DNA of 64,000 bases, taken from NCBI GenBank assembly GCA_965202625.1, contig CBDBBI010000010.1, forward strand, positions 1,345,489 to 1,409,488, read 5' to 3'. This document shows positions 13,792-63,110 of this stretch, in pieces (the stretch's first letter is position 1; each line of letters opens with the position of its first letter). The position numbers and the translations under genes were made by a program. The notes under the pieces were generated by a model. The model was not told the DNA's origin, searched no databases, and saw only the letters and a program-made list of their open reading frames with translations. This stretch comes from a bacterium. Lineage in GTDB: Bacteria; UBA8248.

Positions 13792-13796
13792 CCTCC

Positions 13797-14882: not shown

Positions 14883-14935
14883 CCTTCACGCCTCTCTGAC
14901 GTTGAACGAATCCCCTGGTGCCCAAATATGCGACG

Positions 14936-14974
14936 AAGGCTGCGGAGACCTCTCCACGGCGCCTCCGCAGCCTT
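14936..14974. other. Intercistronic perfect 12-bp inverted repeat (mRNA-stabilising or attenuating hairpin)
   Basis: AAGGCTGCGGAG (14936-14947) / CTCCGCAGCCTT (14963-14974), 15-nt loop, no U-tract on the coding strand. Confidence 0.75.
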
Positions 14975-14995
14975 GAAAATTACGCCCCATGCGCC

Positions 14996-16000: not shown

Positions 16001-16201
16001 CTCTTTTCTCCTCTGGGAAAGAAAATACGTGAAACGACTTAAGAGACAGCGAAACAACTGCCTGAAGTCATGGATGAGGGAAGTATGCCACAGACGCGCC
16101 TTCATAACATCAAGCCCATCACGTCAAGAGGAAAGGGTGATGCCGCCAAACCATTCTGTGGTGCTCAGGCCAAGCCGCCCGTCCGGAATGAGGACGCGGG
16201 C

Positions 16202-36767: not shown

Positions 36768-36961
36768 CCAAAGACCTCCTGGATTTCGAGACCCGCGCGT
36801 AAAATGCAAGGTAAAAAGAGATGAATTGCGCCTTTTTAGGCGCACAGGGCGCATCCATGACGCAGCCCGCCAACAAGGACGGTCACTCAGTGCCTCGAAA
36901 CCATCGAAAGAACGATAGATCCTGGGGAAGTCGCTGAAAACGGAAAAGGAAAAAAAGCGAA

Positions 36962-47053: not shown

Positions 47054-48339
47054 CCGAAACTTCTCAGGGCGTCGGCGTTCTTTCGGACCTTCTCGACTGC
47101 GAGAACAAATTGGTCAATTTCCCTTTCGGTGTTCGGGTATCGGCAAATGTTCGTCAAAAGCAAGTCCTTCTCCCAGAGCCGCTCGACAACCGGACAGGTT
47201 CCCTTCGCGTATGACACGCCGCCCTCGCGCGCGTCGTCACGAAAAGGATAGCCTTTCGTCCCGTATGCGCTCCTCTTTTGATATATCGGTTCGAGATATA
47301 TAGGTCGCACATACCCCTCCGTCACTTGAACGCCTTCCTCCCTGAGGGCTCTCGCAAAAATTTCACGGGGGATGCCCATTTTCGTTTCATCATACTTCAT
47401 GGCGTAAAGGTAATAGACATGCGTGCAGCCCCGAGCGGTTTCCGGAGGGGTCAAGAAATCAAACTCGGCCAGCTGCTGGGTCAGGTTCTCGGCGAGGCGA
47501 ACCCGAATGCGCGTCAGTTCGTCCATCTTGCCGATTTGCGCAATGCCAACGGCTGCGCATATTTCCGGCAAGCGATAGTTAAAACCGACCATGTTCGTGA
47601 TATCTTCCCGGCCCATGGGGCCAATCACAACCTCCCCGTGATTGCGTTTCAACTGCATATGAAGCGCCAGCTCTTCCTTGTCCGTTAAGGCAACCCCGCC
47701 CTCGCCGCACTGGATGACCTTGTGATAATTCAGGCTCTGAACACCTATGTCCCCTACGGCGCCCGTCTTTTTTCCCGCGCACTCTGCGAGTGGGGCCTGG
47801 GCGTTGTCCTCAATGAGCATAAGTCCACGTCGGTCGGCAAGAGCGCGCAACTCCATCAATGGGGAGGGATGTCCAAACAGATTGACTGTGAGAATGGCGC
47901 GCGTTCTATCGTTTATCAAAGACTCCACCGAAGAAGGATCGATGCAGAACGTCGCATCCTCCACGTCGGCAAACACGGGGATCGCATTTTCCATGAGAAT
48001 ACTGCTCGCAGTGGCGCTCATGGTGAACGGGGATGTAATAATCTCCTCTCCAGGCTCAACCCCCGTCGCCGCCACCGCGCAATGCAGAGCCGACGTCGCT
48101 GAATTCACGCAGACGGCGCGCTTCACGCCGAACCTTTCGGCAAATAACTTTTCAAGCTTCCTGACTTTCACGCCGCCGAGGAAACGCTCCGAATGCGTCC
48201 CCGAGAATCCTGAAAGATGTTGGCTTCTCAAGCTGCTAAGAACCTCTTTTTCCTCAGCCTGATCGACCATCGTGGTATGCACGGCGTAAGGTTCTTTGCG
48301 TATGGGCTCTCCACCAAGAAGAGCTAATTTGCCGTTCAC
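47050..48339 (-). CDS. DegT/DnrJ/EryC1/StrS PLP-dependent sugar aminotransferase
   Basis: NSATSALH, EDNAQA, SLNYHKVIQCGEGG, GFNYR. Confidence 0.94.
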   Translation of the reverse strand: MNGKLALLGGEPIRKEPYAVHTTMVDQAEEKEVLSSLRSQHLSGFSGTHSERFLGGVKVRKLEKLFAERFGVKRAVCVNSATSALHCAVAATGVEPGEEIITSPFTMSATASSILMENAIPVFADVEDATFCIDPSSVESLINDRTRAILTVNLFGHPSPLMELRALADRRGLMLIEDNAQAPLAECAGKKTGAVGDIGVQSLNYHKVIQCGEGGVALTDKEELALHMQLKRNHGEVVIGPMGREDITNMVGFNYRLPEICAAVGIAQIGKMDELTRIRVRLAENLTQQLAEFDFLTPPETARGCTHVYYLYAMKYDETKMGIPREIFARALREEGVQVTEGYVRPIYLEPIYQKRSAYGTKGYPFRDDAREGGVSYAKGTCPVVERLWEKDLLLTNICRYPNTEREIDQFVLAVEKVRKNADALRSFG

Positions 48340-48355
48340 ATGCGTTCCCCTCGCG

Positions 48356-49363
48356 TCAAATAGGGGTCACTTTCCTCATTATATCCGATGAGAGGACGGC
48401 TTCGCAAATTTCAATCGCCCTCACGCCGTCGCGCAGAGAACAAGAGGGCGCATCACCAACCTCCAGGCACCTTACAAGCTCCTCTACAGCCCGAAGAGAA
48501 CTATTGCGCCACTGCGTTTCCTCTGGTCGCCGAGCAAGTTCCAACACCTGGAACAAGCGAAAGTAGGGGTCTTCACGCGCTTGGAATCGAAGAAGTTTCT
48601 GGCCCCTTTGCCCAATGACGATTCTTCCTCTATCCGTGATGATATCCGCATCAAAGAGGACATACTCCAACACAGGAACGTGTAAAAACGTAGCGTATAT
48701 CCCGCGCTCGAAAACAACGTCAAAATCCGCTCCAGAACCCCCAGCCTCATTGTCATTGTCAAACACCCTCAAAAGATGCACCTCTTTGGGGTCGCCAAAA
48801 AACCAACGCAGCAAATCAATATAATGGGAGGCGTTTTCCAACAAACCTTTTACGTAGTGCACAGTAACACGGATGACAGAGCCATGAATTCCACTCTCCA
48901 GCTCGCGCTTGAGTTGACGAAGAGTCGGGTTCCATCTCCGAAAGTAGTTCACCGCCACAGGCCGAGTCCCCGCGATAGAAATGGATTCACGCGCTTCTAT
49001 GGATGATTGCGCAACTGGTTTTTCGAGGAAAACGGCTTTCACGTCTGCGTCGCAAACTGCGCGCAAAGCGTTGAGATGATGCGCCGTAGGCAGGCAAATA
49101 CTCACGATATCGGGACGTTCCCGGTCAAGCATCTGATTGTAGTCCGCATACAACGTATCCACGCCCCAACGCCGGCCAAAAGCCGTCCGAGCGTCGGCGC
49201 TTACATCCGCAGCAGAGACAAGGTCGACGTCCGGGCAAGCCAGATACGCGCCCGCGTGCGTAGCGGTCCATTTGCCCTCGGAAAAATTATCGTATCGGGA
49301 GGCAATGTTCCCGCAGCCGATAATAGCCGCCTTATATGTGGCTTTGCCGCTGTTCAAAAACAC
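48356..49363 (-). CDS. Gfo/Idh/MocA-family sugar oxidoreductase
   Basis: IIGCGNI, FLEKPV, VNYFRRW, NASHYIDL. Confidence 0.92.
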   Translation of the reverse strand: MFLNSGKATYKAAIIGCGNIASRYDNFSEGKWTATHAGAYLACPDVDLVSAADVSADARTAFGRRWGVDTLYADYNQMLDRERPDIVSICLPTAHHLNALRAVCDADVKAVFLEKPVAQSSIEARESISIAGTRPVAVNYFRRWNPTLRQLKRELESGIHGSVIRVTVHYVKGLLENASHYIDLLRWFFGDPKEVHLLRVFDNDNEAGGSGADFDVVFERGIYATFLHVPVLEYVLFDADIITDRGRIVIGQRGQKLLRFQAREDPYFRLFQVLELARRPEETQWRNSSLRAVEELVRCLEVGDAPSCSLRDGVRAIEICEAVLSSDIMRKVTPI

Positions 49364-50123
49364 GCTGCTGAACGACCTGACGATTGATATCCAGAAGGCT
49401 TGGTTCCGTATCTAAAAGCCGCATCACATCGAATAGCGTGAAGCAAGGGTTCTTTGCATAAAGGCGGGTATAAATTGCGAGGATTAACTCGAAATCCTCC
49501 CGATTGTCTACAGTGAGACGGAGGCCCGGTCTGCGGCATTCCGACCACTTCCCCACCGCCTCAAAAGATTTTAGCCTGAATCTGTCTGGTCGTTCAAAAA
49601 TATAGGAGGTGACGTGCTCTCGATCGACAGGATCGTCGCTCCACCCAGCCACTTGCCTCAAGAGAGAAGTGGAGAAAATCTCCACGCTCGTTCCTATGGG
49701 AAACGTCGATTCTTCCTCCCATGAGGAGCTATGCCGCATCGAGGTATTCGCCACGTAATCGAATTTATCCGCAAGAAATAGTCCTACCATCTCATCAATA
49801 AGGAGCGGCTCCACAAGAGGGGCATCCCCGCCGAGTTCGACAATTACGTCTCCATTCCACGCATCAGCCGCTTGGAGAACTCGGCTCAGGACGTCTTCCT
49901 CGCTACCTCGGAAACAACCCAGGCCGCTTTCTTCGGCCACTCGAACGATGGGGTCGTCAAGCGGATTTGTCGTGGTCGCGATGATCGCCGCGTCTAAACT
50001 CTTCGCTCTAAGCACCCTTTCCGCCATTTGCGCCAGCATGGGTTTTCCGCATACATCCAGAAGCACTTTTCCCGGCAACCTCAAGGAATTCATCCTGGCT
50101 TCGATGATGGCGACGATTTTCAC
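49332..50123 (-). CDS. SpsF-like cytidylyltransferase (start re-assigned to GTG 50123)
   Basis: IIEARMNSLRLPGKVL, FRGSEEDVLSR, GDAPL, REHVT, RLTVDNREDF. Confidence 0.9.
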   Translation of the reverse strand: MKIVAIIEARMNSLRLPGKVLLDVCGKPMLAQMAERVLRAKSLDAAIIATTTNPLDDPIVRVAEESGLGCFRGSEEDVLSRVLQAADAWNGDVIVELGGDAPLVEPLLIDEMVGLFLADKFDYVANTSMRHSSSWEEESTFPIGTSVEIFSTSLLRQVAGWSDDPVDREHVTSYIFERPDRFRLKSFEAVGKWSECRRPGLRLTVDNREDFELILAIYTRLYAKNPCFTLFDVMRLLDTEPSLLDINRQVVQQRVFEQRQSHI

Positions 50124-50698
50124 TCGCGCTTCTCTTCTCGCATATCTTCCCAACGCACACGAAATATCCCCAATCGATATTCATCGACATAACCTGACCT
50201 ACAGAAAAAACTCTCTTTGAGCGTCGCTTCATGGAGATACCCGTTTTTCTCAAAACTTCGTCTCGAACCCTCATTCGTCGCCCACATACCGGCCGTAATC
50301 TTCCGAAGGTTGAGCTTCTCGAAGCCATGGGCAGTCATGAGAGCGATGGCTTCCGTCGCAACGCCTTTTCCCCAGAAACGCCTGTCGCCAATGACGATGC
50401 TCATATCGCCCGTTCGATGGACCCAGTCGATCTTATGAATGCCGACGACCCCCACGAGCAAACTTTCATCTTCTTTCATGACAACGCCAAACTGCACGTC
50501 CGTTCGGCTCTTCATAAGAGCGTCGAATACCTCCCGCTGCCCCTCCTCGGTTACGGGAAACGTTCCCTTGTTGATATTCTGCGTGACCTCAGAGGAATTG
50601 AACCAAGCGTGCCAAACCGGAATATCTTCCGCTTTCAACGCACGGAGAAATACGCGTTGACCACTTCTAAACATGGGACGCCCTTCTGGGTTTCGCAT
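50120..50698 (-). CDS. GNAT N-acetyltransferase (RimJ/RimL, PseH-like)
   Basis: FWGKGVATEA, LNLRKI, NEGSRRSFEKNG. Confidence 0.9.
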   Translation of the reverse strand: MRNPEGRPMFRSGQRVFLRALKAEDIPVWHAWFNSSEVTQNINKGTFPVTEEGQREVFDALMKSRTDVQFGVVMKEDESLLVGVVGIHKIDWVHRTGDMSIVIGDRRFWGKGVATEAIALMTAHGFEKLNLRKITAGMWATNEGSRRSFEKNGYLHEATLKESFFCRSGYVDEYRLGIFRVRWEDMREEKRE

Positions 50699-50710
50699 TG
50701 GTCTTGCGAT

Positions 50711-51649
50711 TCATGGCTTGAGCCAAGCCCTGCAATGCAGAAGATCGCCCACGCCCGCTTCCTGAAGTTGGCGCCGATAAAAATCATCCACCCCCTCAAG
50801 AACGTCTAAAAAAATCTTTCCCCGGGGGGTTTCTTTCCTGAGGAATTCGTTCGGAAAATTCAAATTCGTATGTTGGGAAGAACCAGTGTCGCCGCTTCCG
50901 GTATGCAGCCATTTGAAATGATTCGTGAGAGAGGCCGCAAGATAGTGGGTGCACTCAAAATCATATCCGCATTCCATCAGAAGCCTGCCCAAGCTTTTCT
51001 CCGTAAAATAATAAAGGTGATATTCACGGAAATAAAAATCCCTGTAATTCGCCACATCATAATAACTCGCAATCGGATCCAACAAGTTGGGAACGGCTAT
51101 AAAAACAACGGACTCTGGATGTATAAAGCGTTTCAAATCCTCCAAAAAATCCTTCACGCATGGAACGTGCTCAAGCACGGCGTGCATCACAACAACGTCG
51201 AATGGCAGTTCCGTCTCACAATCGATGAGGGGCTTGTCCCACACGGGAATACCGGCCGCATGTAACGTTCGAACGTGCGTGGGTGTAATCTCCACTCCCT
51301 GAACGTGCGAGACATTTCCCTGAATCGACCGTAGAAACGATCCGCGCCCGCAACCAACGTCCAAAACGCGAGACTCCGAACACAAATAGGGCTCCACCTC
51401 TTTCTTGTAAATTTTATAATTGTCGAACTTGGGAAGAGGTCTTTCTCTCAATTGATCGGGTGCGAAAACATAACCGTCATCCGAATACCAATCGTGGGTC
51501 GCCTGCGTTTCATCCCAGGTTTCCAGAAAACTGAGGTCGCATGAACCGCAAAAATACAGAGCGATATTTACCTGCTGATCTATTTTTCTCCCCCGAACCG
51601 TATTGCGGATGCGCCGCCCACGGTCGGAACAGATGGGACAGAAACTCAT
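50711..51649 (-). CDS. Class I SAM-dependent methyltransferase with N-terminal Cys4 zinc motif (start re-assigned to ATG 51649)
   Basis: CPIC...CGSC, VLDVGCGRG, GVEI, FDVVVMHAVLEHV, YHLYYFT. Confidence 0.9.
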   Translation of the reverse strand: MSFCPICSDRGRRIRNTVRGRKIDQQVNIALYFCGSCDLSFLETWDETQATHDWYSDDGYVFAPDQLRERPLPKFDNYKIYKKEVEPYLCSESRVLDVGCGRGSFLRSIQGNVSHVQGVEITPTHVRTLHAAGIPVWDKPLIDCETELPFDVVVMHAVLEHVPCVKDFLEDLKRFIHPESVVFIAVPNLLDPIASYYDVANYRDFYFREYHLYYFTEKSLGRLLMECGYDFECTHYLAASLTNHFKWLHTGSGDTGSSQHTNLNFPNEFLRKETPRGKIFLDVLEGVDDFYRRQLQEAGVGDLLHCRAWLKP

Positions 51650-53025
51650 TATGCCGGAATCCCCTCGTATGATGACAGCGAACGCCATGGCGGCATAAAG
51701 CCTTGGGTCTGCACGTCTTTCGCCATCTTCAGCAGGGAGAAGTCGTGATATCGTCGCGCGACGAGCTGCGCACCGAAAGGCAGGCCCTCGGAACTCTTGA
51801 ACGTGGGCACGTTCATCGTCGGGACGCCGCAAAGCGTCCATATGAGGCAGTTGTCTTTTTTGTCCCGCCCCATGATTCCTTTCGGCGCATGACCAGAAGT
51901 GGACAAGTTCAAAATCATATCGAAATCTTCAAAAAAATCGGAAAGAATCGTTTTTAGATTTTCTTGCTGCTCTAAACCCTCCCAATATTGCTCGGAGGTA
52001 ATCTTTTGGCCTTGCTCTATCATTTCCGAGAAAATATCGCTCAACTCGTCTCGATGCAACCGATATTCCTCATCAAAATAGTAAGACAGCCCTTTCTGAT
52101 AGACGAGCGCATGAATATCATGGGCGCGAGAGAACGGCTCAGGCAACTCAACCTCTCTTAATTCAACGTCTTCGCATCGGGATAGGTGGGACGCCAGCCG
52201 ACAAACGGCGTCCTTCGCATACTCTTCCGCATGTTCCCAACCTGGGCCCCTGACAAACGCCACCCTGTATGGCGGCTTCACCTGGCTTGATGACCAGTCG
52301 TCAAGATTGTTTTTGACATACGGATAATTCGCTCCCCTTACTCGAGCGGATTCAAACATCAACCACAGATCATCAATAGTCCTTGCAAAAAAAGATACGT
52401 GATCCAAAGTGTCGAGGGTCTTCAGGATCCCCGTTCTGGGCACGACTCCAAAGGAGGGCTTAAAACCATACACGCCAGAATAACTCGCAGGCCGTATCGT
52501 GGAGCCTGCGGTCTGCGTGCCTAGCGAGAACGGAACCATACAAGCGGCAACAGATACGGCTGAACCGCTGGACGAAGTCCCAGGAGAATAGGCCGGGTTA
52601 TACGGGTTCACCGTAGGCCCGGGATGATGAACGGCAAACTCCGCCGTGACGGTTTTGCCGAGCGTCAATCCGCCTTCCCTCTTGAGGTGAGATATTACCC
52701 GAGCGTCGTTGCCAGGGGTAAAGCCTTTCCAGATAGGACTTCCCATCCAGGTCTGAAAGTCCGCCGTGTTAATGACGTCTTTTACGCCGAAAGGCGCGCC
52801 CCAGAGAAGACCTTCGAACTCTCCCGCATTTATTTTCCGCTCTATTTCGCGCGCTTGGCGAATGGATATCTCCGGCTCAAAGTGCTGCCATGCGCAAAGA
52901 GAGGAGTCATACCGCTCTACCTGCGCGATACAGGAAAGGAGCCATTCCACAAGGCTTAATTTTCTTTTTTTTATGAGTTCTATCGCTTCGATGGCAAAAA
53001 GCGCGTTCGCTTCCATATCGCTCAT
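51649..53025 (-). CDS. Amidase-signature family enzyme (GatA-like fold)
   Basis: FGVKDVI (Lys), PGTSSSGSA (cis-Ser), GTQTAGSTIRPA (nucleophile Ser), GFKPS, GLPFGAQL. Confidence 0.92.
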   Translation of the reverse strand: MSDMEANALFAIEAIELIKKRKLSLVEWLLSCIAQVERYDSSLCAWQHFEPEISIRQAREIERKINAGEFEGLLWGAPFGVKDVINTADFQTWMGSPIWKGFTPGNDARVISHLKREGGLTLGKTVTAEFAVHHPGPTVNPYNPAYSPGTSSSGSAVSVAACMVPFSLGTQTAGSTIRPASYSGVYGFKPSFGVVPRTGILKTLDTLDHVSFFARTIDDLWLMFESARVRGANYPYVKNNLDDWSSSQVKPPYRVAFVRGPGWEHAEEYAKDAVCRLASHLSRCEDVELREVELPEPFSRAHDIHALVYQKGLSYYFDEEYRLHRDELSDIFSEMIEQGQKITSEQYWEGLEQQENLKTILSDFFEDFDMILNLSTSGHAPKGIMGRDKKDNCLIWTLCGVPTMNVPTFKSSEGLPFGAQLVARRYHDFSLLKMAKDVQTQGFMPPWRSLSSYEGIPA

Positions 53026-53027
53026 TT

Positions 53028-54170
53028 CTATGCGGAGTCAATTATTCCCACTTGATCGGGCCGAATGACTTTGGGCAGCTCCCGCGCCTGCCCCTCTCTC
53101 TGGCTCTCAAGGAGATCCAGAAATTCTTCTTCCGTGTATCCCGTGATCTCCAAGTAATAATCAAGCGCTCCGGGACGTTTCGAGTCAACTTTCCGCGCAA
53201 GCGCAAACCCCTCTTCACGCGACATAATTCCGTTTCTCACATCTATGCTCGCCTGGTCGGTACCTCTTCCAAACCCACGTTTTACCCACTTCGAATAATC
53301 GTGCACGCCCGCCATACGGCATTCCACGCTTTTGTATCCTTTATAAGCACCCTCGACCTTATCTTCACGCCACCCATATTCTCTTTTTATGAACTCCACC
53401 TGGCGTTCTCCGTCCCAAAACAGATAATCCCCTAAGTGGATTCCCCGCATACCGAGCGTATCAAGCTCTTCTTTGGGGGGAATAAGAAAAGGAAACAGAT
53501 CGCGCTCTGTCAGCCCAATATCTTCATCTACCATTTTTGATGAATCCACCTTCATCGAAACCTTCAAGTATAAGGTTTCGTCATACGGGAGAGGATCAGC
53601 GTATGTTGACTTGCTACCCAATTCAGCGGTTGACTCTCCCCAAACCATAAGGGGGATCCCATATTGCGTCGCCACTTTTAGAGGATAGGCTCCCACGCCT
53701 GCGTGACAATGCCAACAGGAATCGCCGATCGTCGTCAAAGATTTCCGGGCGATTTTGTTAATCACCCCTCGGTTCGGCGTGAACATGACATGGTCAACGT
53801 TAAACTTTTCCAAGCAATTTTGCAGATTCCACCAGCCGGTTTCTGTCCACCAATTATGGCTAAACGTGCAAGTGAGAGGTCTTAACCCATAAACTCGCGT
53901 CAGAACGTGAAGCTGAAAACAGCTATCTTTGCCCCCGCTTATAGGGACCAGGCAATCATAGTTGTCCCCTGCTTCAGCCTTCGCCTTTTCCAATATACTT
54001 TTTAACTGCGCCTCCCGTTCTATCCAATTGATGTGCATCTTCATTTCAGAACTGCGGCACGCCTTACAAATTCCAAGCGCGTCAAAATCCATTCCCTCTG
54101 AGGTCTCCGGCATGCAGCACCGCACACAATATCGCAACTCTGAAAAAGGAGCGTTTCTCGAAGCCGGCAT
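53028..54170 (-). CDS. N-acetyl sugar amidotransferase (PseA/WbpG/WbuX/PtmG family, PP-loop)
   Basis: CVRCCMPET...CKAC, YDCLVPISGGKDS, CWHCH, WGE, KRGFGR. Confidence 0.93.
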   Translation of the reverse strand: MPASRNAPFSELRYCVRCCMPETSEGMDFDALGICKACRSSEMKMHINWIEREAQLKSILEKAKAEAGDNYDCLVPISGGKDSCFQLHVLTRVYGLRPLTCTFSHNWWTETGWWNLQNCLEKFNVDHVMFTPNRGVINKIARKSLTTIGDSCWHCHAGVGAYPLKVATQYGIPLMVWGESTAELGSKSTYADPLPYDETLYLKVSMKVDSSKMVDEDIGLTERDLFPFLIPPKEELDTLGMRGIHLGDYLFWDGERQVEFIKREYGWREDKVEGAYKGYKSVECRMAGVHDYSKWVKRGFGRGTDQASIDVRNGIMSREEGFALARKVDSKRPGALDYYLEITGYTEEEFLDLLESQREGQARELPKVIRPDQVGIIDSA

Positions 54171-54238: not shown

Positions 54239-55513
54239 TTACGAAGCCTGTGGAATCAAAGGCATGATTTGTCCTGCCTGTCGAAGCACCATGACCTTGG
54301 ATTCTGGCCCCGTCGCTTCCAATGCGTTATCCACCGCCGCCTGTATGGATGCAGACCAGCCAAATCCCATCCTGTTCGCTTCCTCCTGATGGACGTGAGG
54401 AGAAACCAATATGCCCTTCACGCGCTTCGAAATGATTCTGCCAACAGCAATCAGCGTATAGGCCAAGAGCTTTTCGCGAAACTCCCCCGCTTCAACGGCT
54501 CGATAAAGCGAATCGGGCTCCCGAAACCCGTAGCGTTCGAAATTCGGAAATTGCGGAGAAACACCCTCACGACAATCCGAAGCCAACACGATAATCCCGT
54601 TATCCCGACACACGACATCCGCCGCACACACGGCTTTGATGGCCTGACGAAGATCGATGTCAGACGGATAGGCTTCGACGACAACGACGTCCGCCGTTCC
54701 ATCCACCGGCACCCCGTATAATTCCAGACATCGATCACACCCTGTTTTGTGTGCGCATTCCACATCGCCTGCAACGGCATCATAGATTCTTTCATCGTCT
54801 ATCATAACCGTGTTGACGATGAAACGGACGCCAGCCTGACGCGCAATGCGAACGCACGCCTTCCTCACCTTGTTGTGAAAATTCCCGAGAATTTCGCTCA
54901 TCTCATAATCCAGAGCAGACCAATGCGTCGCTTCTATCGTCGCCTCTCCGCAAACGCCGGGCATGACGCTCTTCGCCCCACCAGAGAACCCCGCAGTCGC
55001 ATGAGGGATGATGCTGCCGACGGAGATGAGAAAATCCGATTTCAATACTTCCTTGTTCATCTGCACGTCGAAGCCGAGTTTACTCCGTCCTAACGAAGTC
55101 AACGCCGCAGGGTTGTCCCATTCATGGTTGAGAATTTGAAACCGAGAGGCCAGATGATGACCGAACTTGCGCTGTATCTCCTCCTCCGTCATGGCGCGAT
55201 GCGTGCCCAAGCCAATCAGAATGCGAACACACGCATCCGGAACGTCGGCCTCAGCGAGTTCCTCCAGAATGAAGGGGAGGACGCGATGAAGCGGAGTGTG
55301 GCGCGTATTGTCATCCGTAGCAATCAACACCCTCTTCGCCCCTCTGGCCATCTCTCTGAGAGGGGGAGTACCGATTGGGTTGCGAATTCGCTCCCTAAGA
55401 GCGCGCTCGTCAAGCCCTTCACCGTTCGGCGGCGAGGGTCCATACACGCCCATCAGACGCTCATCTCTCACCTCAAAGTCTTCAAACGGGCCCTTCGTGA
55501 GAGATATTTTCAT
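54239..55513 (-). CDS. larA: LarA-family nickel-pincer-dependent alpha-hydroxyacid racemase/epimerase (start re-assigned to ATG 55513)
   Basis: TDDNTRHTP, GLGTHR, PHATAGFSGGAKS, ATH, QAIK: equivalents of the LarA catalytic and cofactor-binding residues are all present. Confidence 0.9.
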   Translation of the reverse strand: MKISLTKGPFEDFEVRDERLMGVYGPSPPNGEGLDERALRERIRNPIGTPPLREMARGAKRVLIATDDNTRHTPLHRVLPFILEELAEADVPDACVRILIGLGTHRAMTEEEIQRKFGHHLASRFQILNHEWDNPAALTSLGRSKLGFDVQMNKEVLKSDFLISVGSIIPHATAGFSGGAKSVMPGVCGEATIEATHWSALDYEMSEILGNFHNKVRKACVRIARQAGVRFIVNTVMIDDERIYDAVAGDVECAHKTGCDRCLELYGVPVDGTADVVVVEAYPSDIDLRQAIKAVCAADVVCRDNGIIVLASDCREGVSPQFPNFERYGFREPDSLYRAVEAGEFREKLLAYTLIAVGRIISKRVKGILVSPHVHQEEANRMGFGWSASIQAAVDNALEATGPESKVMVLRQAGQIMPLIPQAS

Positions 55514-55529: not shown

Positions 55530-57380
55530 CTAATCTTTCCATAATTTTGCATCCGTCGAACAGAACATGTCCACCCATTCTGAACGCCAGTTTTTACCAC
55601 CCCGATAATAACGATACGCAAATGCGCTTACCGCTTCTTGCGTCTCGCTATCCTCCCACCACGAATCCACGTCAGGCCAGACGGCGTTCAAATGTCTCGC
55701 CGCGCTCTCCGGAGATGAGTGATGCACTTTCACTTCTCTCAATTTTTCGATATCGGACTTCGCATCACGCGAAACCCTCCAAACATTTTCGTTCCAGAAA
55801 AAAATAGTGGGTATGCCCGCCGCCATCGTGAATGCCGCAGTTGTCCCCATGTAAGGGAGAACGCAAACCCTGCATTGGGCTAACGCAGGGGACATCCGAC
55901 CAGATAGGAGCCCCACCAATTTCTCGGTGAGTATTTGGACGCCAGAGCACTTTTCCTGCACGTAGCGCTGGACATATCGAAGGCCAACCGCTGTGGGATG
56001 AGGCTTGTAAAACAAAGTGGAGCGAAGGGCATCGTTTAGGTGACGGATGAAATGCACCTCGTCCACCATATGTTGCGGGATGTCTTCGGGCAGATGATCC
56101 GTTGCCAGCAATTTTGAATACACAATTAGGCACGAACCTATCAAAACGATGGATGAATTCCGCTTTCGACTTCGCTTTACTTTTGAAAGAAGGGGGGATG
56201 CGGCCGGCACTGCGGTTACTTGATAATCAGATTGAACCTCCCACCCCCACGATATGAATCTATCCGCCGCCTTATACTCGACAAGGTGGTACCAAGGATG
56301 CGCTTCCTTTAGGCCGTAACCTCCCCCATGCTGATTGACAACCAGACGGACAGGACGCCTCTCCAGCAGATTGGACACGTAGAATTTTGCTTGGTCGTCA
56401 GTCCCTAAAACAGGGCCACATGCGATGGTGTCCGTCCAAGGTGACGTCGCTTTTATCTTTACCAAAGCCTTTTTCTCGTTTGCTCGAAAATCATCCGTGA
56501 ACGCTTTGGGCATCGTTTCTTCAATGAGCCCATCCACAACCTGCAAGAAAATCTCGGCTTCTCTGGCGTCAATATCTTGAATGGATCCGATCTCTTCCAT
56601 GATGTCGTCTTTGGAGATACTCCCATTTTTCGCTTCAGATTTTTTCTGAAATGATTTTACGGCATCCTTACATCGTCTTGCGTTTCGAAATCGCATCCGA
56701 AGAGCCATATAAAAGCTATCGAATGGATTCAAGCCCTGTACTCTGAGAAACTGCACATATCCCAGATTAGAAGCCAAAATATGGGCCCAGTGGTAAATTT
56801 CCAATTTTCTGTTCGGCTTCTTGAACTTAGCATAGTTTTCTCGTGTGAATAGATTTGCATGCTCCTCCGGTGCAGGCGCGCCATCTCGCATCACCCATCC
56901 CGCCGGCCGATATGCGCGGAAAAAACGGCTGAAAATAAGCCGGTTCAGCGGATCCTGGAATATCAGATAATCAAAATGGGATGTCGTAACCGAGGAGAGG
57001 CTTTCATCCTGAGGCGCGAGATATACCAGATATGGGGTGTTGCTCTTTAGCTGATTGCGGATTCGCAAAAACCGCTCAAAAGAACATATGACTACCCTCA
57101 AAAGCCATCCCATCAACAATATGCGCCAATATCGCTTGGAATAAGAACGTCGGTGCCTTTCGTTTTGCAGATGTCTCAATTTGGCGACGTAAAATTCACA
57201 AACCCTCTCCAGCTTTTGCGAGACGGGCAAAATATCCTCATGCTTGATCACTCGGCGGATTCCATGTTTTTCCCATCCCCACTGAAAAAACTGCGCATCT
57301 GAAAGGGACCACGGACCCAGATGCTCGGCTTCATATTCGCTTGAGATGGGATCCATTCTCGTAAGGATGAGTTGCTTCAA
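55530..57380 (-). CDS. LIC12162-family putative transferase
   Basis: YWRILLMGWL, QHGGGYG, FISWGW, YKPHP, TMAAGIPTIFFWN. Confidence 0.75.
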   Translation of the reverse strand: MKQLILTRMDPISSEYEAEHLGPWSLSDAQFFQWGWEKHGIRRVIKHEDILPVSQKLERVCEFYVAKLRHLQNERHRRSYSKRYWRILLMGWLLRVVICSFERFLRIRNQLKSNTPYLVYLAPQDESLSSVTTSHFDYLIFQDPLNRLIFSRFFRAYRPAGWVMRDGAPAPEEHANLFTRENYAKFKKPNRKLEIYHWAHILASNLGYVQFLRVQGLNPFDSFYMALRMRFRNARRCKDAVKSFQKKSEAKNGSISKDDIMEEIGSIQDIDAREAEIFLQVVDGLIEETMPKAFTDDFRANEKKALVKIKATSPWTDTIACGPVLGTDDQAKFYVSNLLERRPVRLVVNQHGGGYGLKEAHPWYHLVEYKAADRFISWGWEVQSDYQVTAVPAASPLLSKVKRSRKRNSSIVLIGSCLIVYSKLLATDHLPEDIPQHMVDEVHFIRHLNDALRSTLFYKPHPTAVGLRYVQRYVQEKCSGVQILTEKLVGLLSGRMSPALAQCRVCVLPYMGTTAAFTMAAGIPTIFFWNENVWRVSRDAKSDIEKLREVKVHHSSPESAARHLNAVWPDVDSWWEDSETQEAVSAFAYRYYRGGKNWRSEWVDMFCSTDAKLWKD

Positions 57381-57432: not shown

Positions 57433-58530
57433 TCAAGTGATAAAATGCGAATGATGAGACGCTCTCCCAAGCGCATCCCATGTCAATTCTTCGCCCGCTC
57501 GCATTCGGCGGGTTACTCGTCTTCCGATTACTCTATCCACTTCATATGGCGGGATGGCCCCTTGAGGAGCGGGTCTCAGAACTTCAATGTGTTCCCGCGC
57601 AATGACGGCCCCGACTTCCAAATCAGACCGAGCGCGCAAACATCTTCTTTGCAAAACCGCAGTGTCTCGCTCGTTCTCGCTTATCACCTTTTCCCTTCTT
57701 CCCAGAGCCAATTCCAATTCCCGGGTTCTATCGACCATCTCCCGCCAGGCATCAGGCGTCATCGAAAAGATATGATCGGGACCCCTTCGATTGACGTCAT
57801 CCGTAAAATGCTTCTCGACGATTCTCCCCCCCAACGCAATCGCCCCCAAAACCGTCGCATGGCCGGGCGTATGGTCAGACAAACCGAGGATCAACGAGGG
57901 ATAAAGCGCCCGGAACGCGCTCAAAACGTTCAGATGTATATGCTGAAAATTCTCCATTGACCCCGTATAGTTCGTGTTGCACTGGAGAAGCGCCAACTCT
58001 TCGTTGCGCCGCAAAATACACTTGACCGCCTGTTGGACGTCTTGCAAGTCCGAGGCGCCGGTTGCGAGCATGACGGGCTTTCCCTTTTCCGAAATCTTTT
58101 GGAGCATTTCATGCCATGTAATGTCTCCTGAGCCAATTTTATACACATCCACGTACGGCTCAAGAAAATCCACCGCCTCAAAATCATACGGAGATGAAAA
58201 AAAATCAATCCCTGCCTCATCACAGCAAATTTTAAGCGCCTCCGTCCATTCCCAGGGGAGGGAGGCGTCTTCATAAATCTCATATACCGACTTTTCCCAT
58301 GCAGCCTGATGGGACAACTTGTCCGCCATGGCGTCAAACCCATGTTCACTCACAATTTCAGGGGCGCGAAAATGTTGAAACTTCGCCGCGTCGGCCCCCG
58401 CCTCCTTCGCGAGATGAACAAGCCGCTTTGCGCGCTCAAGGCTACCATCATGGTTGGCTGCGATATCGGCGATGAAATATGTCGGATGGTCGTCTCCAAT
58501 CCATCGACCTCCAACACGGAAATTCGGCAT
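57433..58530 (-). CDS. neuB: NeuB-family nonulosonate synthase with SAF domain
   Basis: IADIAANHDG, KFQ, SSPYD, KIGSGD, GLSDH, EKHFT, DHIFS, LRPAP. Confidence 0.93.
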   Translation of the reverse strand: MPNFRVGGRWIGDDHPTYFIADIAANHDGSLERAKRLVHLAKEAGADAAKFQHFRAPEIVSEHGFDAMADKLSHQAAWEKSVYEIYEDASLPWEWTEALKICCDEAGIDFFSSPYDFEAVDFLEPYVDVYKIGSGDITWHEMLQKISEKGKPVMLATGASDLQDVQQAVKCILRRNEELALLQCNTNYTGSMENFQHIHLNVLSAFRALYPSLILGLSDHTPGHATVLGAIALGGRIVEKHFTDDVNRRGPDHIFSMTPDAWREMVDRTRELELALGRREKVISENERDTAVLQRRCLRARSDLEVGAVIAREHIEVLRPAPQGAIPPYEVDRVIGRRVTRRMRAGEELTWDALGRASHHSHFIT

Positions 58531-58548
58531 ATTCAGGAATCCCTCCAC

Positions 58549-59664
58549 TCACCCCAACAGACGATCGTAGGCGTCAAACAATTGCACGACGTTCTTCGTC
58601 CAGTTCGCCTGCTTTTCCACGAGCATCCTGTTTTCGAGAGACATCTTTTCTCTTTCCCGTCTTTTTTGATATGCCTGCAAAATCGTCTCGCCCAAAATTT
58701 CCGCATCTCCGGATGGATACAACCACCCGTTCTTCCCTGGAGCCACCCATTCCCGATTCCCGTATTCATCCACGACGACAACAGGAAGACCGCAACCCAT
58801 GGCTTCCAGCAGGCTCACCGACGTCCCATCGCTGAAAGTCGCGCTCACATACAAATCCGCCTCATTGAAATAATCCACCAATTGATGGTTGGGCATCTGG
58901 CCGGGTAGATGAATATAACGCGCGAGTTCATTCTCGTCTATAAACTTCTCCACCCTGGATCTTAAACTCCCGTCGCCGAGCATGATGACCCTTATGTTCG
59001 AGCGAGATTTTTTCGCCCGCTTTATCGCCTCCAAAAAAACGAAGGGCCCGTGAATCGGCTCAAACGCTCTTGTGCTGATGACGACGAAGAAATTTTCCCA
59101 ATTCAACTTTTTTCGCAATCCAATTTTTGACTTTCTGGGCGTGAACTGCTGCACGTCAATTCCCCAAGGGAAGAACACTACCTGCTCGTCTCTTAAAGGA
59201 GACAAGGATAACACCCGCTCTCGGACAGCATCGCAATCTCCCAAAACCATATCCGCGCGCTTCAGCGTGAATTTCGTTATCCAGCGCATCCACCGGTTTT
59301 TATCAGGAAAAACCAAAACGTCTGAACCCCATGACACGACGAGCAAGGGCGTTGACTTGCAAATGGAGGCTACAAAGGCGCCCGTCTGCACGGGGCCCGC
59401 ATGAATAAGGTCTGGCTTGCTTTCTCGAACACGTTCCCGAAATCGAAAAATCAGCCTTGCCCACTCAAAAATGCCTGGGGCGTCTTTATTTTTTAGCAAG
59501 GGTGGAAGTTTGTTGATCTTCTCAGGGAAAGGGCGAGATTCATACTGGAAGGAACTGTCAGCAAACGGCAAGAACCAAACGTCGCGCCCTGATTTCGCCA
59601 ACGCCTCCAAAAACCTTCTGTCGTGCGTCGAATATCCCTGTGATATGTAGAGGATTCTACTCAT
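58549..59664 (-). CDS. Glycosyltransferase family 4
   Basis: VVSWGSDV, PWGID, STRAFEPIHG, SDGTSVSLLEAMGCG. Confidence 0.92.
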   Translation of the reverse strand: MSRILYISQGYSTHDRRFLEALAKSGRDVWFLPFADSSFQYESRPFPEKINKLPPLLKNKDAPGIFEWARLIFRFRERVRESKPDLIHAGPVQTGAFVASICKSTPLLVVSWGSDVLVFPDKNRWMRWITKFTLKRADMVLGDCDAVRERVLSLSPLRDEQVVFFPWGIDVQQFTPRKSKIGLRKKLNWENFFVVISTRAFEPIHGPFVFLEAIKRAKKSRSNIRVIMLGDGSLRSRVEKFIDENELARYIHLPGQMPNHQLVDYFNEADLYVSATFSDGTSVSLLEAMGCGLPVVVVDEYGNREWVAPGKNGWLYPSGDAEILGETILQAYQKRREREKMSLENRMLVEKQANWTKNVVQLFDAYDRLLG

Positions 59665-60604
59665 TACAATAAGCCATCAACCAACCCGGCAAATGCCCTT
59701 TTAAGGATTCCACAAACCCCGTTCGCAAAGAATCGTGAAATTTTCTCACCCCATCCTCTATCGTTGGCATGGAGTGTCCAAGTAAATTCGATATTTTCTC
59801 AACGCGCAAAGTGGTGTTTTGGGGCCGTTTCGCAGCAAATGGAAACGCCACCACCGACGTCGGCGCAATGGACGTTGCATCCAGAACGAAAATATCCGCC
59901 AGCAGAACAGAAAACGCATGTTTCGAGCAGGCGTCAGAAGCACCCGCATGATATACGCCCTTCGCTCTTATATTCACCAACTCCAGAATGATCTGGGCCA
60001 AATCGCCCGCATACAGGGGCGCAAAATACACGTCCGTGAACATCCCCAGCGTTTCTTTTTGCAGCAACCCGCGCAATATCCACTCTCCCAAACTCAATTT
60101 ATCCTGAAAATTCCACCCGTATAGATTCGTTCTCAAGATCAAACTGTGCGGACAAACCGCGCGCACCACTTCCTCTCCCATGAGTTTCGATCGCGCGTAT
60201 GCGTTCAGAGGCCCCGGTGCATCCTCCTCTGAATACCGCCCCCGCGCGCCATCAAAAACCGAGTCGGTCGATACGTAAAGAAGAAACGACTTGTTGGCGT
60301 GAGCCCATTCCGCGAGGTTCGACGACGCGAGAACATTTTGCCTCTCAGCCAATTCCGGGTCTTTCTCGCACGCATCCACATTGGTCATCGCCGCGGCGTG
60401 AACGATGATGTCGGGCGCGATCTGGTTCAAACACCGATGGGCGGGGCCCTTTTCGGACAGATCGCATCGTATCCATTTCAAACGGGAAGAGCGGATAGGG
60501 ACGGAACGCGAGACGCCAAATACGCTATATTGTTTTTTCGTCGCACAAAAAATCAGATTGCTGCCCAACAGCCCACTCGCGCCTGTGACAAGCAGCTTAG
60601 AAAT
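59657..60604 (-). CDS. RmlD-like (dTDP-4-dehydrorhamnose reductase family) SDR with abnormal start (ATT or frameshift)
   Basis: SKLLVTGASGLLGSNL, HAAAMTNVDACE, VSTDSVFDG, YARSK; no ATG/GTG/TTG in frame upstream of the Rossmann motif. Confidence 0.8.
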   Translation of the reverse strand: MSKLLVTGASGLLGSNLIFCATKKQYSVFGVSRSVPIRSSRLKWIRCDLSEKGPAHRCLNQIAPDIIVHAAAMTNVDACEKDPELAERQNVLASSNLAEWAHANKSFLLYVSTDSVFDGARGRYSEEDAPGPLNAYARSKLMGEEVVRAVCPHSLILRTNLYGWNFQDKLSLGEWILRGLLQKETLGMFTDVYFAPLYAGDLAQIILELVNIRAKGVYHAGASDACSKHAFSVLLADIFVLDATSIAPTSVVAFPFAAKRPQNTTLRVEKISNLLGHSMPTIEDGVRKFHDSLRTGFVESLKGHLPGWLMAYCNE

Positions 60605-60716
60605 TTGGAATCACCCCCCAAGGCTCGGACATCATTACCCGGCCCGACGCGAAATTTATATTTCCCTTTCCCAGCCATATCGCGACAAGCGACAAGAAAG
60701 GAAATTCAGCCATCGC

Positions 60717-61403
60717 CTACGTGTTTTCCCGATAATCATACAAAGATTCCGCGATGTGCAGATGAATCGGCTCATCAATATCGAAGGCATGCGCCTCAGG
60801 AATTTTATATGGACTGAGGCGCTCTCCATAAAACGTTCTTTCCCTCTCAAGAGCATCAATTCTTGCGATGTAAAATGAGCCGCTATTCACAAACACTTCG
60901 GGTAGAAGCTGCTTCTGCCGAAAATACTCGCTTCCAAAAGCAGGCTTCAAAAACCCGTTTTCCTCGACAGAGGCCCAAAACGGCGAGTAGAAGTATTTCG
61001 TCACGGCCATCACAAAATCGCACGCCCCGTTTTCGAAAATCTCATGGCCTCCCCTGAGATCGTCTGGCCGGAGAAGAGCAGCGGTCGGGAAAATAACGCA
61101 AAGGCTGTCTATCTCCTTGTTGCATCTGCGCAACCAACCCACAAAATCAAGACTAACTTGGACGAGGGTGACGGAATCAGCCGCCAACTCAAGAGGGCGT
61201 TCATGGATGAGAGCGCCTGCATTTTTAGAGATTTCGCCGATAGCATCGTCATCGGTGGAGACCCATATATCCTCAAACAAACCCGATGCCGTTGCCGTCT
61301 CAATCGTATGCGCAATGAGCGGTTTATTCTTGAACAAAGCGATATTCTTTGAGGGAAACCTTTTTGATCTGCCGCGAGCCGGTATGAGGCAGGTTATTGC
61401 CAC
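60717..61403 (-). CDS. neuA: Acylneuraminate cytidylyltransferase (NeuA/PseF-like)
   Basis: LIPARGRSKRFPSKN, VSTDD, ERPLELA, NSGSFY, DIDEP. Confidence 0.92.
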   Translation of the reverse strand: MAITCLIPARGRSKRFPSKNIALFKNKPLIAHTIETATASGLFEDIWVSTDDDAIGEISKNAGALIHERPLELAADSVTLVQVSLDFVGWLRRCNKEIDSLCVIFPTAALLRPDDLRGGHEIFENGACDFVMAVTKYFYSPFWASVEENGFLKPAFGSEYFRQKQLLPEVFVNSGSFYIARIDALERERTFYGERLSPYKIPEAHAFDIDEPIHLHIAESLYDYRENT

Positions 61404-61565
61404 CGTCCTCTCCCCAAAATGTGCATGGTAATTACAATGGATTCAAATACAAAGAACGCCCATTTTAGATTTCACGTTGTTAAAATCATGGAGACCGCAC
61501 CACACGAGGACATCAACGCGCGCAAATCACATCAGCGGAAAACGACGCATTCACTCCAAGGTCCT

Positions 61566-62633
61566 TCAATCACTGAACAAGTCCGAAAGTTCCAAGCGGT
61601 GCCCCGGGGGCAAGTCTCTTTGCAGACGCGCGTCCGAGAGCCTTTCGAAGGTATCGGGCGCAAGCGCAAAACCCGGGCGGCGAAAGTCCACCTTCAAGTC
61701 CGAGAGCCTATCGCCTTTTTTGCCCCCCTCCACCAAGAAAACGCTGCGGCGCATCATCCGTCGCCTATCCAACTCCGCAGGCTTCATGACGCGCCGTGGA
61801 AGCCCCATCGCAATCTCGAGATCGCGCATCACGTGAATAAATTTTTTCACATCAGGAGGCTCCAGCGAAAACATGTACTCGGGGCCTCTAGTCGTTCGAT
61901 CAAAAGTGAGGGTTTTCTCTATTAAGTTTGCGCCAAGTGCCACCGCCGCGATGTCCATATCCCATCCCGGCGAATGATCGGAATAAGCGATCGGGAAGGG
62001 AAACATTTGTTTCAGCGTCTTAATGATGTTCAGATTGATGCTGGGGAGGCGCGCGGGGTAGCCAGAAGGGCATTGGTGAATAATGATGTTTTCATTATCT
62101 TCTTCTAAAATTGCTTCAACCGCATTCTCTACCTCTCCAATCGTGGAATTCCCCGTATCCAACTGCACGCACATGCCAGTTTTCGCAACCCGGCGAATTA
62201 ACGGCAAGTGATTCACGTCCGCAGACGCAATCTTAATCGAGTGACAACCTAATTTTTCCATTAAATCAACTTCTTCCTCAAAACCAATCGTCGCGAAAAA
62301 AGCCAGTCCCATGTCGTCACTATAGCTCTTCAATGCCGTCCATTCATCGTCGCTCATCGCTCTGCGACACATAATTTCATACAGCGATTCACTCACCGTC
62401 TCCGTCTTCTCGGTCGCCCTGTCGACCAACACGTCATATTCAATCTCTACCTTCCTATCCGAACATAAACGATCCGGATCCAAAACTTGAAACTTAATAG
62501 CGTCCGCCCCGCATTCAGCGGCAAGTTTCACCAGCTTCTTAGCCGAGTCCAAACCATCGTGGGTCGGGCCAGCCTCGAACGTTACAAAAACAGGGTGCCC
62601 ATCTCCTACCTGCCTATCGCCGAAATGTACCAT
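61566..62633 (-). CDS. Divergent NeuB-family synthase (TFEAGPTH subtype)
   Basis: TFEAGPTHDG, KFQ, KIASAD, CPSGYP, AYSDH, EKTLTFDR, RRPG. Confidence 0.88.
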   Translation of the reverse strand: MVHFGDRQVGDGHPVFVTFEAGPTHDGLDSAKKLVKLAAECGADAIKFQVLDPDRLCSDRKVEIEYDVLVDRATEKTETVSESLYEIMCRRAMSDDEWTALKSYSDDMGLAFFATIGFEEEVDLMEKLGCHSIKIASADVNHLPLIRRVAKTGMCVQLDTGNSTIGEVENAVEAILEEDNENIIIHQCPSGYPARLPSINLNIIKTLKQMFPFPIAYSDHSPGWDMDIAAVALGANLIEKTLTFDRTTRGPEYMFSLEPPDVKKFIHVMRDLEIAMGLPRRVMKPAELDRRRMMRRSVFLVEGGKKGDRLSDLKVDFRRPGFALAPDTFERLSDARLQRDLPPGHRLELSDLFSD

Positions 62634-63110
62634 CAACGAAACCCTCAAAGTTCATCATGCCTTGAAAACCGAGAACATCGCTCAGCCTTCAAAGGCAATA
62701 CAATAATACGTCCAGGAATTTTCCATATATTTGGCGCAAAAAATGGGGAGCAAACATCAGCACCCAATACCCCAGAAACCCTTTCGCAAAAACCACATCC
62801 CTAAGCAAATCCAAAAATGGTTTTCTTTTCTCTATCGCCTCCTTATGTCATGGCTCAATATCCAAACGCTTCTACTCTAGGTGCCACTATGGCTGAGGCG
62901 TATCGCAAGCCCGGGGGATGAGACATGACCTTCGGCTTCTTGCTGCTTGCCTCCAGCGCATCCGCTTATGGACCTTATATTCCCCGCTCCATAGCTCGAA
63001 TACCGCGATCATTATAAAATCACCCTTATTTTCGCCACAGAATCAGCATCCGCCTCAAAAGGCAAGGTTGCGCATCAAGCCGAAAACGGAGGCCAACGTC
63101 GAGGAAATTT

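Follow-up and report, generated by a model that had tools for sequence, protein, structure and literature searches.

The substrates of all characterised LarA-superfamily enzymes are free hydroxy acids, and their setting is central or catabolic metabolism. In these enzymes, hydride transfer to the nickel-pincer nucleotide (NPN), coupled to that of a proton, inverts an alpha-hydroxy acid at C2 (PMC11770544, PMC7583248, 10.1101/2024.11.28.625916). LarA itself belongs to lactate metabolism and the lar operon, and the catabolic D-gluconate 2-epimerases GntE1 and GntE2 (LarAH19/20; 4NAR) are the precedent within the superfamily for action at C2 of a sugar acid. Among surface-sugar systems, the spore-crust legionaminic-acid genes SpsE, SpsF and SpsA of B. 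subtilis are close counterparts of the genes described below, and to our knowledge the sps operon has no LarA homologue as a member. Accessory genes that change the stereochemistry of a nonulosonic acid (NulO) are known from Acinetobacter baumannii KL49, in which ElaA, ElaB and ElaC epimerise C8 of cytidine monophosphate (CMP)-legionaminic acid (PMC13656337). Here we describe a LarA homologue (abbreviated LarAH) which, in contrast to LarA, has its context in glycan biosynthesis. It is the product of positions 54239-55513 of a 64,000-nucleotide stretch of a bacterial contig (CBDBBI010000010.1, assembly GCA_965202625.1), hereafter called the window. In at least eight bacterial lineages, relatives of it adjoin the same two sugar-building genes, and we give somewhat better than even odds (a probability of about 0.55) to the view that its clade serves a NulO glycan module as a dedicated tailoring component, optional to the module, and inverts C2 of an alpha-hydroxy-carboxylate. 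An earlier note on this DNA knew of no characterised role for LarA in surface glycans, and our literature search likewise turned up no paper in which LarA or NPN enzymes are linked to nonulosonic acids, O-antigens or capsules. The LarA-family papers examined make no reference in their main text to sialic, NeuB or polysaccharide contexts, and the accessible part of the supplements to PMC7583248 has none of COG2089, COG1083, COG1861 and COG0463. In the one paper that speaks of both lactate racemase and nonulosonic acids, the two appear in passages that have nothing to do with each other.

The gene is an unbroken 424-codon open reading frame (ORF) on the reverse strand, running from an ATG at 55513 to a stop at 54239. 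The earlier note had reported an intact gene at these positions; its extent stands, the strand has to be given as minus, and the plus-strand translation is riddled with stops. The longest mechanical ORF extends to a TTG at 55621; ATG 55513 is taken as the start because a GGAG lies about 10 nt 5' of it and alignments with homologues begin at residue 1-2 of the ATG form. The protein matches Lar_N (E=3.5e-56) and LarA_C (E=1.2e-10) in Pfam, and its closest solved relatives are L. plantarum LarA (5HUQ, E=4e-55), LarA and Mar2 of T. thermosaccharolyticum, and LarA of Isosphaera pallida. An AlphaFold prediction based on the sequences of 22 clade members reaches a mean predicted local distance difference test score of 90.9, and its 19 significant fold matches in the PDB are all LarA-family proteins, with template-modelling (TM) scores of 0.63-0.84 and identities of 18-29%. 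With the LarA enzymes of L. plantarum and I. pallida (5HUQ, 9EIA) it has in common the same two-domain fold (TM 0.75-0.80), the NPN-tethering Lys, the nickel-ligand His, the catalytic His pair and the carboxylate-binding Arg, Gln and Lys, although identity is only 27-29%.

Residues were mapped by MAFFT alignment with L. plantarum LarA (sequence from the plasmid lar operon), and their roles were taken from PMC11770544, PMC7583248 and 10.1101/2024.11.28.625916. R75 of LarA, which binds NPN and carboxylate, corresponds to R71 of LarAH; the catalytic H108 and H174 to H105 and H171; K184, the tether of the NPN thioamide, to K181; the nickel ligand H200 to H197; and the carboxylate-binding Q295 and K298 to Q290 and K293. 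D72, a position of the published LarA signature logo, is D68 in LarAH, and S180, within the conserved GFSGG motif, is S177; both are counted among the NPN-binding positions. All members of the clade examined (22/22, at 52-100% identity) keep D68, R71, H171, S177, K181, H197, Q290 and K293, and H105 is kept in 21 of them. The assignment in the earlier note to the LarA family with complete motifs therefore holds, all of the motifs having been mapped onto residues of L. plantarum LarA. Judged by its sequence, LarAH is a bona fide member of the superfamily with a complete active site and, since the full residue set is there, the same C2 chemistry is the default expectation.

Within the superfamily, LarAH stays below the cut-offs of the NCBIfam subfamily models. 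It scores best with the LarAH6 malate racemase model (298 bits against a cut-off of 500), followed by the LarA equivalog NF033504 (280 against 460), LarAH10 (263 against 540), LarAH5 (237 against 462), LarAH14/15/16 (88 against 740) and the hexonate epimerase model (73 against 500). The residues associated with specificity tell the same story. In LarA_Ip-substrate structures, the C-alpha substituent faces the equivalents of positions 175, 176, 358 and 359, and Tyr294 hydrogen-bonds the 2-OH (10.1101/2024.11.28.625916). Invariantly in the clade, Phe175 is replaced by Ala (Ala172), Phe176 by Thr (Thr173), Tyr294 by Arg (Arg289), Val297 by Ile and Trp358 by Tyr (Tyr352), and Thr359 is Thr (Thr353). 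The signatures published for positions 175/176/358/359 are F,F,W,E/Q for LAR, E,V,A,H for GntE, Y,F,H/Q,T for HGR and x,x,H/Q,K for MAR, that of lactate racemase being also given as Phe-Phe-Trp-(Glu/Gln/Thr) (PMC11770544). The A-T / R / Y-T signature of the clade is unlike all of these: Ala-Thr-Tyr-Thr stands in place of the Phe-Phe-Trp of lactate racemases, Tyr-Thr in place of the His/Gln-Lys pair of malate racemases, and the Glu-Val-Ala-His of GntE is missing. Compared with the LarAH10 racemases of hydrophobic 2-hydroxyacids, Tyr352 fits, whereas Ala172, Thr173, Arg289 and Thr353 are not hydrophobic. The clade also has a conserved loop in the C-terminal domain, QFPxFxRYGF.

These features set LarAH apart from its best-scoring and its functionally most suggestive relatives alike. 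The malate racemase Mar2 (LarAH6; 6D6Z/7S91) resembles it in fold (TM 0.77-0.83), and both would accommodate an extra anionic group, but LarAH lacks a malic-enzyme context as well as the malate signature. In GntE1 and GntE2, as in LarAH, small residues follow the second catalytic His, and in the two epimerases they make room for the substrate (PMC11770544, PMC7583248); the GntE enzymes are, however, far more distant (TM 0.63, 20% identity). On these comparisons, LarAH belongs to a distinct and so far undescribed clade that fits no named LarA subfamily. The small or polar Ala172, Thr173, Tyr352 and Thr353, together with Arg289, suggest a bulky, polar, possibly doubly anionic, sugar-acid-sized substrate rather than lactate. 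A protein search found relatives at 75-82% identity in Nitrospinota-type metagenome-assembled genomes (MAGs) and many at 50-57% elsewhere. Public records (P0030, P0038, P0041, P0057, P0098, P0104, P0109) call clade members 'nickel-dependent lactate racemase', a name that is probably over-specific, as the LarA score is below threshold and the residues that read out specificity differ.

The evidence that ties this clade to glycan biosynthesis is its gene neighbourhood. A pattern scan with one genome per species yielded 38 loci with relatives of LarAH at 43-81% identity (fetched related loci are labelled L###), which were searched by tblastn with the cluster proteins of the window, orthologues of the NeuB fusion being recognised at an identity of at least 39%. 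An orthologue of the cytidylyltransferase-NeuB-SAF fusion is found in 35 of the 38, at a median distance of 30 nt from LarAH and within 100 nt in 24 loci, and an orthologue of the fusion of a family 2 glycosyltransferase (GT2) with a cytidylyltransferase-like domain is also found in 35, always within 1.75 kb. As for the exceptions, L020 and L038 are on truncated contigs, the flank of L002 ends too early, and L037 (43% identity) has a truly different context. About 20 of the loci come from Nitrospinota and unclassified relatives, and the other carriers are Cytophagia (Bacteroidota), Candidatus Anammoxibacter, Pirellulales, Planctomycetia, Verrucomicrobiota, Desulfobacterales, Thermodesulfobacteriota, Candidatus Zymogenus and Omnitrophota; all carriers are uncultivated. 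The order of the genes varies: LIC12162-LarAH-NeuB-GT2 in Nitrospinota; NeuB-LarAH-GT2 in Cytophagia, Pirellulales, Verrucomicrobiota and one deltaproteobacterial MAG; and GT2-LarAH-NeuB, with none to three genes between the last two, in Desulfobacterales, Planctomycetia, Omnitrophota, Zymogenus and Thermodesulfobacteriota. Loci whose called genes carry Pfam labels agree, a Kiritimatiellae MAG has the three genes overlapping, and additional metagenome contigs share the arrangement. Across 32 loci, the identity of LarAH tracks that of its partners (r=0.99 for NeuB and r=0.95 for GT2, values inflated by shared ancestry), which is consistent with inheritance of LarAH and its partners as a unit.

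The link between LarAH and NulO glycan genes is thus conserved across phyla and is not a one-off insertion. The earlier note had already put the gene in a NulO glycan locus; this placement is borne out by the neighbourhood survey, in which the closest homologues lie beside the NeuB and GT2 partners rather than in unrelated contexts. The immediate neighbours it had named, a LIC12162-like transferase and an acetamidino-type amidotransferase, are real, but they are not the conserved partners: the former pairs with LarAH only in Nitrospinota relatives (adjacent in L001-L020 and L042, stop and start often overlapping), and the latter belongs to a block found in a minority of loci. In the window the conserved partners lie 8-10 kb from LarAH, while in most Nitrospinota relatives LarAH adjoins the NeuB fusion. 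An apparent GT2-LarAH fusion (713-aa ORFs in L027, L028 and L039) was rejected as an artefact of ORF extension, the two genes being in different frames. On the metagenome contig L098 (1586-6341), a GT2-LarAH-NeuB trio has frameshifts in the GT2 fusion and in LarAH, which could be sequencing errors or the mark of a decaying copy.

Both partners resemble fused versions of B. subtilis Sps proteins. The best solved relative of the NeuB domain is B. subtilis SpsE (1VLI, E=5e-57), and the N-terminal domain fused to it carries the canonical cytidylyltransferase motif IPAKxxSxRLPxKN (IPAKRRSNRLPDKN); the cytidylyltransferase domains are SpsF-like. The GT2 domain is closest to the second glycosyltransferase domain of the chondroitin synthase K4CP, with SpsA also among its solved relatives (E=7e-10). 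The C-terminal cytidylyltransferase-like domain of this second fusion is without the Arg and Lys of the cytidine triphosphate (CTP)-binding motif; with these basic residues missing, it may serve to bind a CMP-sugar and not to synthesise one. What sets the module apart from the sps genes is the fusions and this degenerate second cytidylyltransferase domain. We found no solved structure of the GT2 fusion, which constitutes a widespread family of its own (window, L043-L102).

The dependence between LarAH and its partners is one-way. When the GT2 fusion was used as the seed of a metagenome scan, 24 full-length homologues had flanks of at least 3 kb in both directions; a NeuB-family gene is present in 22 of these loci and LarAH in only three. 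Since the NeuB and GT2 module is commoner without LarAH than with it, LarAH is an optional tailoring component on a more widespread module and not a core enzyme. In L046 and L056, two loci that lack LarAH and whose NeuB belongs to the same subfamily, the NeuB gene is directly adjoined by that of a B12-binding radical SAM enzyme, which lies in L046 (4873-6123) between the GT2 fusion and NeuB, the place of LarAH in other loci, and in L056 (4736-6343) directly upstream of the NeuB fusion. Enzymes of this type recur in NeuB/GT2-fusion modules, also in L023/L040, L024, L030, L031, L033 and L036, a hint that uncultivated phyla may modify their nonulosonic acids by radical chemistry such as C-methylation. 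In L049, a methyltransferase and a prenyltransferase-like gene flank the GT2 fusion.

In the model that we favour, the core of the module would be the SpsF/SpsE-like cytidylyltransferase-NeuB synthase and the GT2-cytidylyltransferase-like transferase, often followed by an ABC exporter. LarAH would bind an alpha-hydroxy-carboxylate through Arg71, Gln290 and Lys293, and the C2 hydride would be abstracted onto NPN tethered to Lys181 and ligated by His197, with His105 or His171 shuttling the proton. Return of the hydride to the opposite face would leave C2 inverted, and the product would become part of the exported glycan that contains the NulO, or serve as one of its precursors. NPN dependence in vivo, C2 inversion and the class of substrate are what we infer for LarAH, and it very probably performs an undescribed step in the making of a surface glycan, which would probably be a new biological role for a known kind of enzyme. 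The pocket residues and the GntE precedent favour, as one part of this general model, a sugar-acid-sized polar alpha-hydroxy acid from an undescribed branch of the pathway, a reading that falls short of even odds. More tentative still is the proposal that this clade would be the first example of a nickel-pincer enzyme dedicated to the making of glycans, acting on a sugar-acid-sized intermediate of the NulO pathway, or on a NulO, to yield a stereoisomer that NeuB-type synthases cannot make.

Several points weigh against this model. We know of no alpha-hydroxy acid with a hydrogen at C2 in the canonical NulO pathways, C2 of a NulO being a ketone or hemiketal; the substrate must therefore be a not-yet-described one. 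In the loci compared, LarAH has no constant companion among acyl-activating enzymes, kinases or reductases that would point to the use made of its product. Many of the 38 loci are from closely related Nitrospinota, so that the number of independent observations is nearer 12-15. The position of Trp358, which is Tyr in LarAH, is Phe or Tyr in racemases of hydrophobic 2-hydroxyacids as well (PMC11770544). Finally, tblastn with L. plantarum LarB, LarC1, LarC2 and LarE (plasmid lar operon, E<=1e-3) gave no match in the window or in 122 related loci (1.58 Mb), which shows only that the cofactor genes do not cluster with LarAH. Pfam scans of most other ORFs of the window also lack LarB, LarC and LarE, in agreement with the earlier note, which had recorded these genes as absent there.

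Of the alternatives, the strongest, though in our view unlikely, is that LarAH racemises a small hydroxy acid of central metabolism (glycerate, lactate or malate), the rarer enantiomer of which then enters the NulO glycan as a substituent or aglycone, for instance as a glyceroyl or lactyl group in N- or O-linkage that may also be O-methylated; this was the first option of the earlier note. Pseudaminic and legionaminic acids with glyceroyl or di-O-methylglyceroyl modifications are known, and several loci have methyltransferases next to LarAH. Two to three genes upstream, the Nitrospinota relatives encode an AMP-binding (adenylating) enzyme and an M20 peptidase, and in the window a D-isomer-specific 2-hydroxyacid dehydrogenase, between a Wzz-like gene and sugar epimerases in the polysaccharide locus, could make a D-2-hydroxy acid for LarAH. 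Racemisation of glycerate, lactate and 2-hydroxybutyrate is, moreover, a proven activity of LarA homologues (PMC11770544). Neither set of genes, however, held up as a conserved hydroxy-acid partner, as the AMP-binding and M20 genes are confined to the Nitrospinota loci and the dehydrogenase is not matched by any gene near LarAH elsewhere. Nor does the presence of LarAH go together with that of an acyltransferase, and the bulky Phe175, Phe176 and Trp358 of small-substrate enzymes have given way to Ala, Thr and Tyr, which speaks for a larger substrate.

A second alternative, which we regard as improbable, is non-canonical NPN chemistry on a NulO or CMP-NulO itself, for instance epimerisation of a ring or side-chain carbinol (C4, C7 or C8), which would be oxidised transiently and then reduced again, or an internal redox isomerisation with the C1 carboxylate and C2 keto group as a handle. 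LarAH stands between the NulO synthase/CMP-synthetase and the transferase, which elsewhere is the place of other tailoring enzymes, and the clade-specific Arg289 and QFPxFxRYGF loop suggest a remodelled substrate site. Epimeric nonulosonic acids do exist, and the known C8 epimerisation acts on the CMP-sugar through the separate ElaA/B/C proteins (PMC13656337). These, like LarAH, are encoded by accessory genes in a NulO pathway, and they alter the stereochemistry of the sugar, but they belong to unrelated families, do not depend on NPN, and act on a carbon that is not alpha to a carboxylate. Every characterised LarA homologue acts at C2 of an alpha-hydroxy acid, and the retained Arg, Gln, Lys and two-His set, which places C2-H over the cofactor, argues for the ordinary geometry; with a ketone at C2, two atoms or more would separate the carboxylate from the carbon that donates the hydride.

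It is very improbable that LarAH is a cofactor-less or repurposed protein, such as a binding or scaffold subunit or an enzyme with another cofactor, in genomes that lack NPN biosynthesis. This idea draws on the missing larB, larC and larE matches, but in characterised organisms the lar biosynthetic genes are not always beside those of larA homologues, so that their absence within 10 kb is weak evidence. The NPN-tethering Lys, the nickel-ligand His, the phosphate-binding Arg and both catalytic His residues are invariant or nearly so in the 22 members, which is hard to explain without a cofactor; strict conservation of the tether, the ligand and the catalytic His pair across phyla lends indirect support to the availability of NPN. 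That an ordinary metabolic lactate or hydroxyacid racemase came to lie in the glycan locus by chance is effectively refuted: the complete racemisation residue set and the lactate racemase names of close homologues are outweighed by the sub-threshold LarA score, the missing Phe-Phe-Trp signature, the lack of lactate permease, lactate dehydrogenase or lar genes in the examined parts of the loci and, above all, the linkage to both fusions in 35 of 38 loci across phyla with shuffled gene order.

The features of the window are listed in Table 1. LarAH has an operon-like setting, in which the flanking genes are on the same strand, the gaps of 16 and 68 nt reported by the earlier note are confirmed by coordinates and the identities of the two neighbours by the TIGR04331 and TIGR03573 scores, and Shine-Dalgarno sequences are present; all genes from about 25.8 kb to the end of the window are on the minus strand. 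A scan for promoters and terminators over 44-64 kb was uninformative, with counts equal to the shuffled expectation and no signal above chance.

Table 1. Features of the window (coordinates in the window; lengths, scores and remarks as applicable)
Feature	Position	Strand	Length and remarks
LarAH	54239..55513	-	424 aa; Lar_N + LarA_C; full NPN-binding and catalytic residue set; distinct NulO-module clade
Cytidylyltransferase-NeuB-SAF fusion	44298..45890	-	530 aa; most tightly conserved LarAH partner
GT2-cytidylyltransferase-like fusion	42864..44258	-	464 aa; DADD motif; second conserved LarAH partner
Half-size ABC exporter	39004..40776	-	590 aa; ABC_membrane + ABC_tran
LIC12162 family transferase	55530..57380	-	616 aa; TIGR04331 306 bits (cut-off 225); gap to LarAH 16 nt (upstream)
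WbuX-type N-acetyl sugar amidotransferase	53028..54170	-	TIGR03573 330 bits (cut-off 203); gap to LarAH 68 nt (downstream)
Eight-gene block separating LarAH from the NeuB fusion	45887..54170	-	about 8 kb
WbuX amidotransferase and GatA-like amidase pair	51649-54170	-	
Second NulO branch	57433..63983	-	upstream of LarAH
Protein without Pfam or NCBIfam match	34770-36965	-	731 aa
Protein without Pfam or NCBIfam match	40860-42239	-	459 aa
Protein without Pfam or NCBIfam match	42101-42814	-	237 aa
Protein without Pfam or NCBIfam match	45887-47053	-	388 aa
D-isomer-specific 2-hydroxyacid dehydrogenase	31596-32576	-	
Group resembling acid-sugar or sulfated-sugar catabolism	685-16105		separate gene group
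DctM-type TRAP permease	4010-5983		in the 685-16105 group
Sulfatase	10464-11921		in the 685-16105 group
Enolase-superfamily MR/MLE enzyme	13797-14882		in the 685-16105 group

The window has the context of a NulO cluster, with NeuB and a CMP-sugar synthetase on the same strand as a PseB-like dehydratase, DegT, GNAT and GT2/GT4 genes. Between 38152 and 63983 (minus strand) there are three NeuB paralogues (at 44298, 57433 and 61566) and five CTP_transf_3 genes or domains (at 38152, 42864, 44298, 49332 and 60717), which suggests that two or three different nonulosonic acids are made; because the NeuB, PseF and PseI matches all lie below their equivalog cut-offs, no sugar type (Neu, Leg, Pse or other) is assigned. 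The eight genes that separate LarAH from the NeuB fusion in the window, L001 and L002 encode a WbuX amidotransferase, a GatA-like amidase, a methyltransferase, a GNAT protein, a CTP_transf_3 nucleotidyltransferase, a GFO/IDH/MocA oxidoreductase, a DegT aminotransferase and the 388-aa protein of Table 1. This block, probably a precursor and acetamidino branch, occurs whole or in part in L001, L002, L021, L041, L047 and L125 and is missing from most Nitrospinota loci. The WbuX amidotransferase is paired with the GatA-like amidase-signature protein in the window, L001, L002, L021 and L125, and ammonia for the acetamidino group may come from this amidase as an alternative source; in the Anammoxibacter locus L040, HisH/HisF-like (GATase + His_biosynth) genes lie just upstream of the WbuX homologue instead. 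Precursor genes for a GFO oxidoreductase, a DegT aminotransferase and an acetyltransferase are present in several loci, joined in those of Planctomycetia and Omnitrophota by an Epimerase_2 gene, and fit an amino-sugar branch feeding NeuB. The second NulO branch, which among the related loci only L007 also has, consists of NeuB, GT4, an RmlD-like reductase, a PseF-like cytidylyltransferase, NeuB and a PseB-like 4,6-dehydratase cut by the window end.

Other genes recur with the module to varying degrees. The half-size ABC exporter often follows the GT2 fusion, as in L040, L041, L042 and Nitrospinota loci. No solved relative of the LIC12162 family transferase was found, and its supposed homology to a protein of about 610 aa that follows NeuB in Omnitrophota was dropped, there being no significant similarity. 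Among the proteins without a Pfam or NCBIfam match, the 459-aa and 237-aa pair recurs in L007, L067 and L048, with the former also in L041, and the 388-aa protein recurs beside DegT and NeuB in L001, L041 and L125 and is a candidate for the nucleotide-sugar hydrolase or epimerase that is otherwise missing. The G+C content is 57-62% over positions 1-24000 and 48-53% across the glycan locus (26000-64000), a drop typical of horizontally exchanged surface-polysaccharide loci. The catabolism-like group near the start of the window additionally holds NMT1-family binding proteins, two GFO/IDH/MocA oxidoreductases and a 3-hydroxyisobutyrate-dehydrogenase-like reductase.

A LarA clade fixed in the sialic-acid-like sugar modules of many phyla would extend nickel-pincer chemistry from the metabolism of free hydroxy acids to the biosynthesis of cell-surface glycans. 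Since the textbook pathways contain no alpha-hydroxy acid on which such an enzyme could act, an unknown building block or stereoisomer is implied in these glycans. If the proposed role is true, an organometallic nickel cofactor joins the toolkit with which bacteria diversify their surface sugars, and a new class of NulO or NulO-like sugar would exist in uncultivated phyla.

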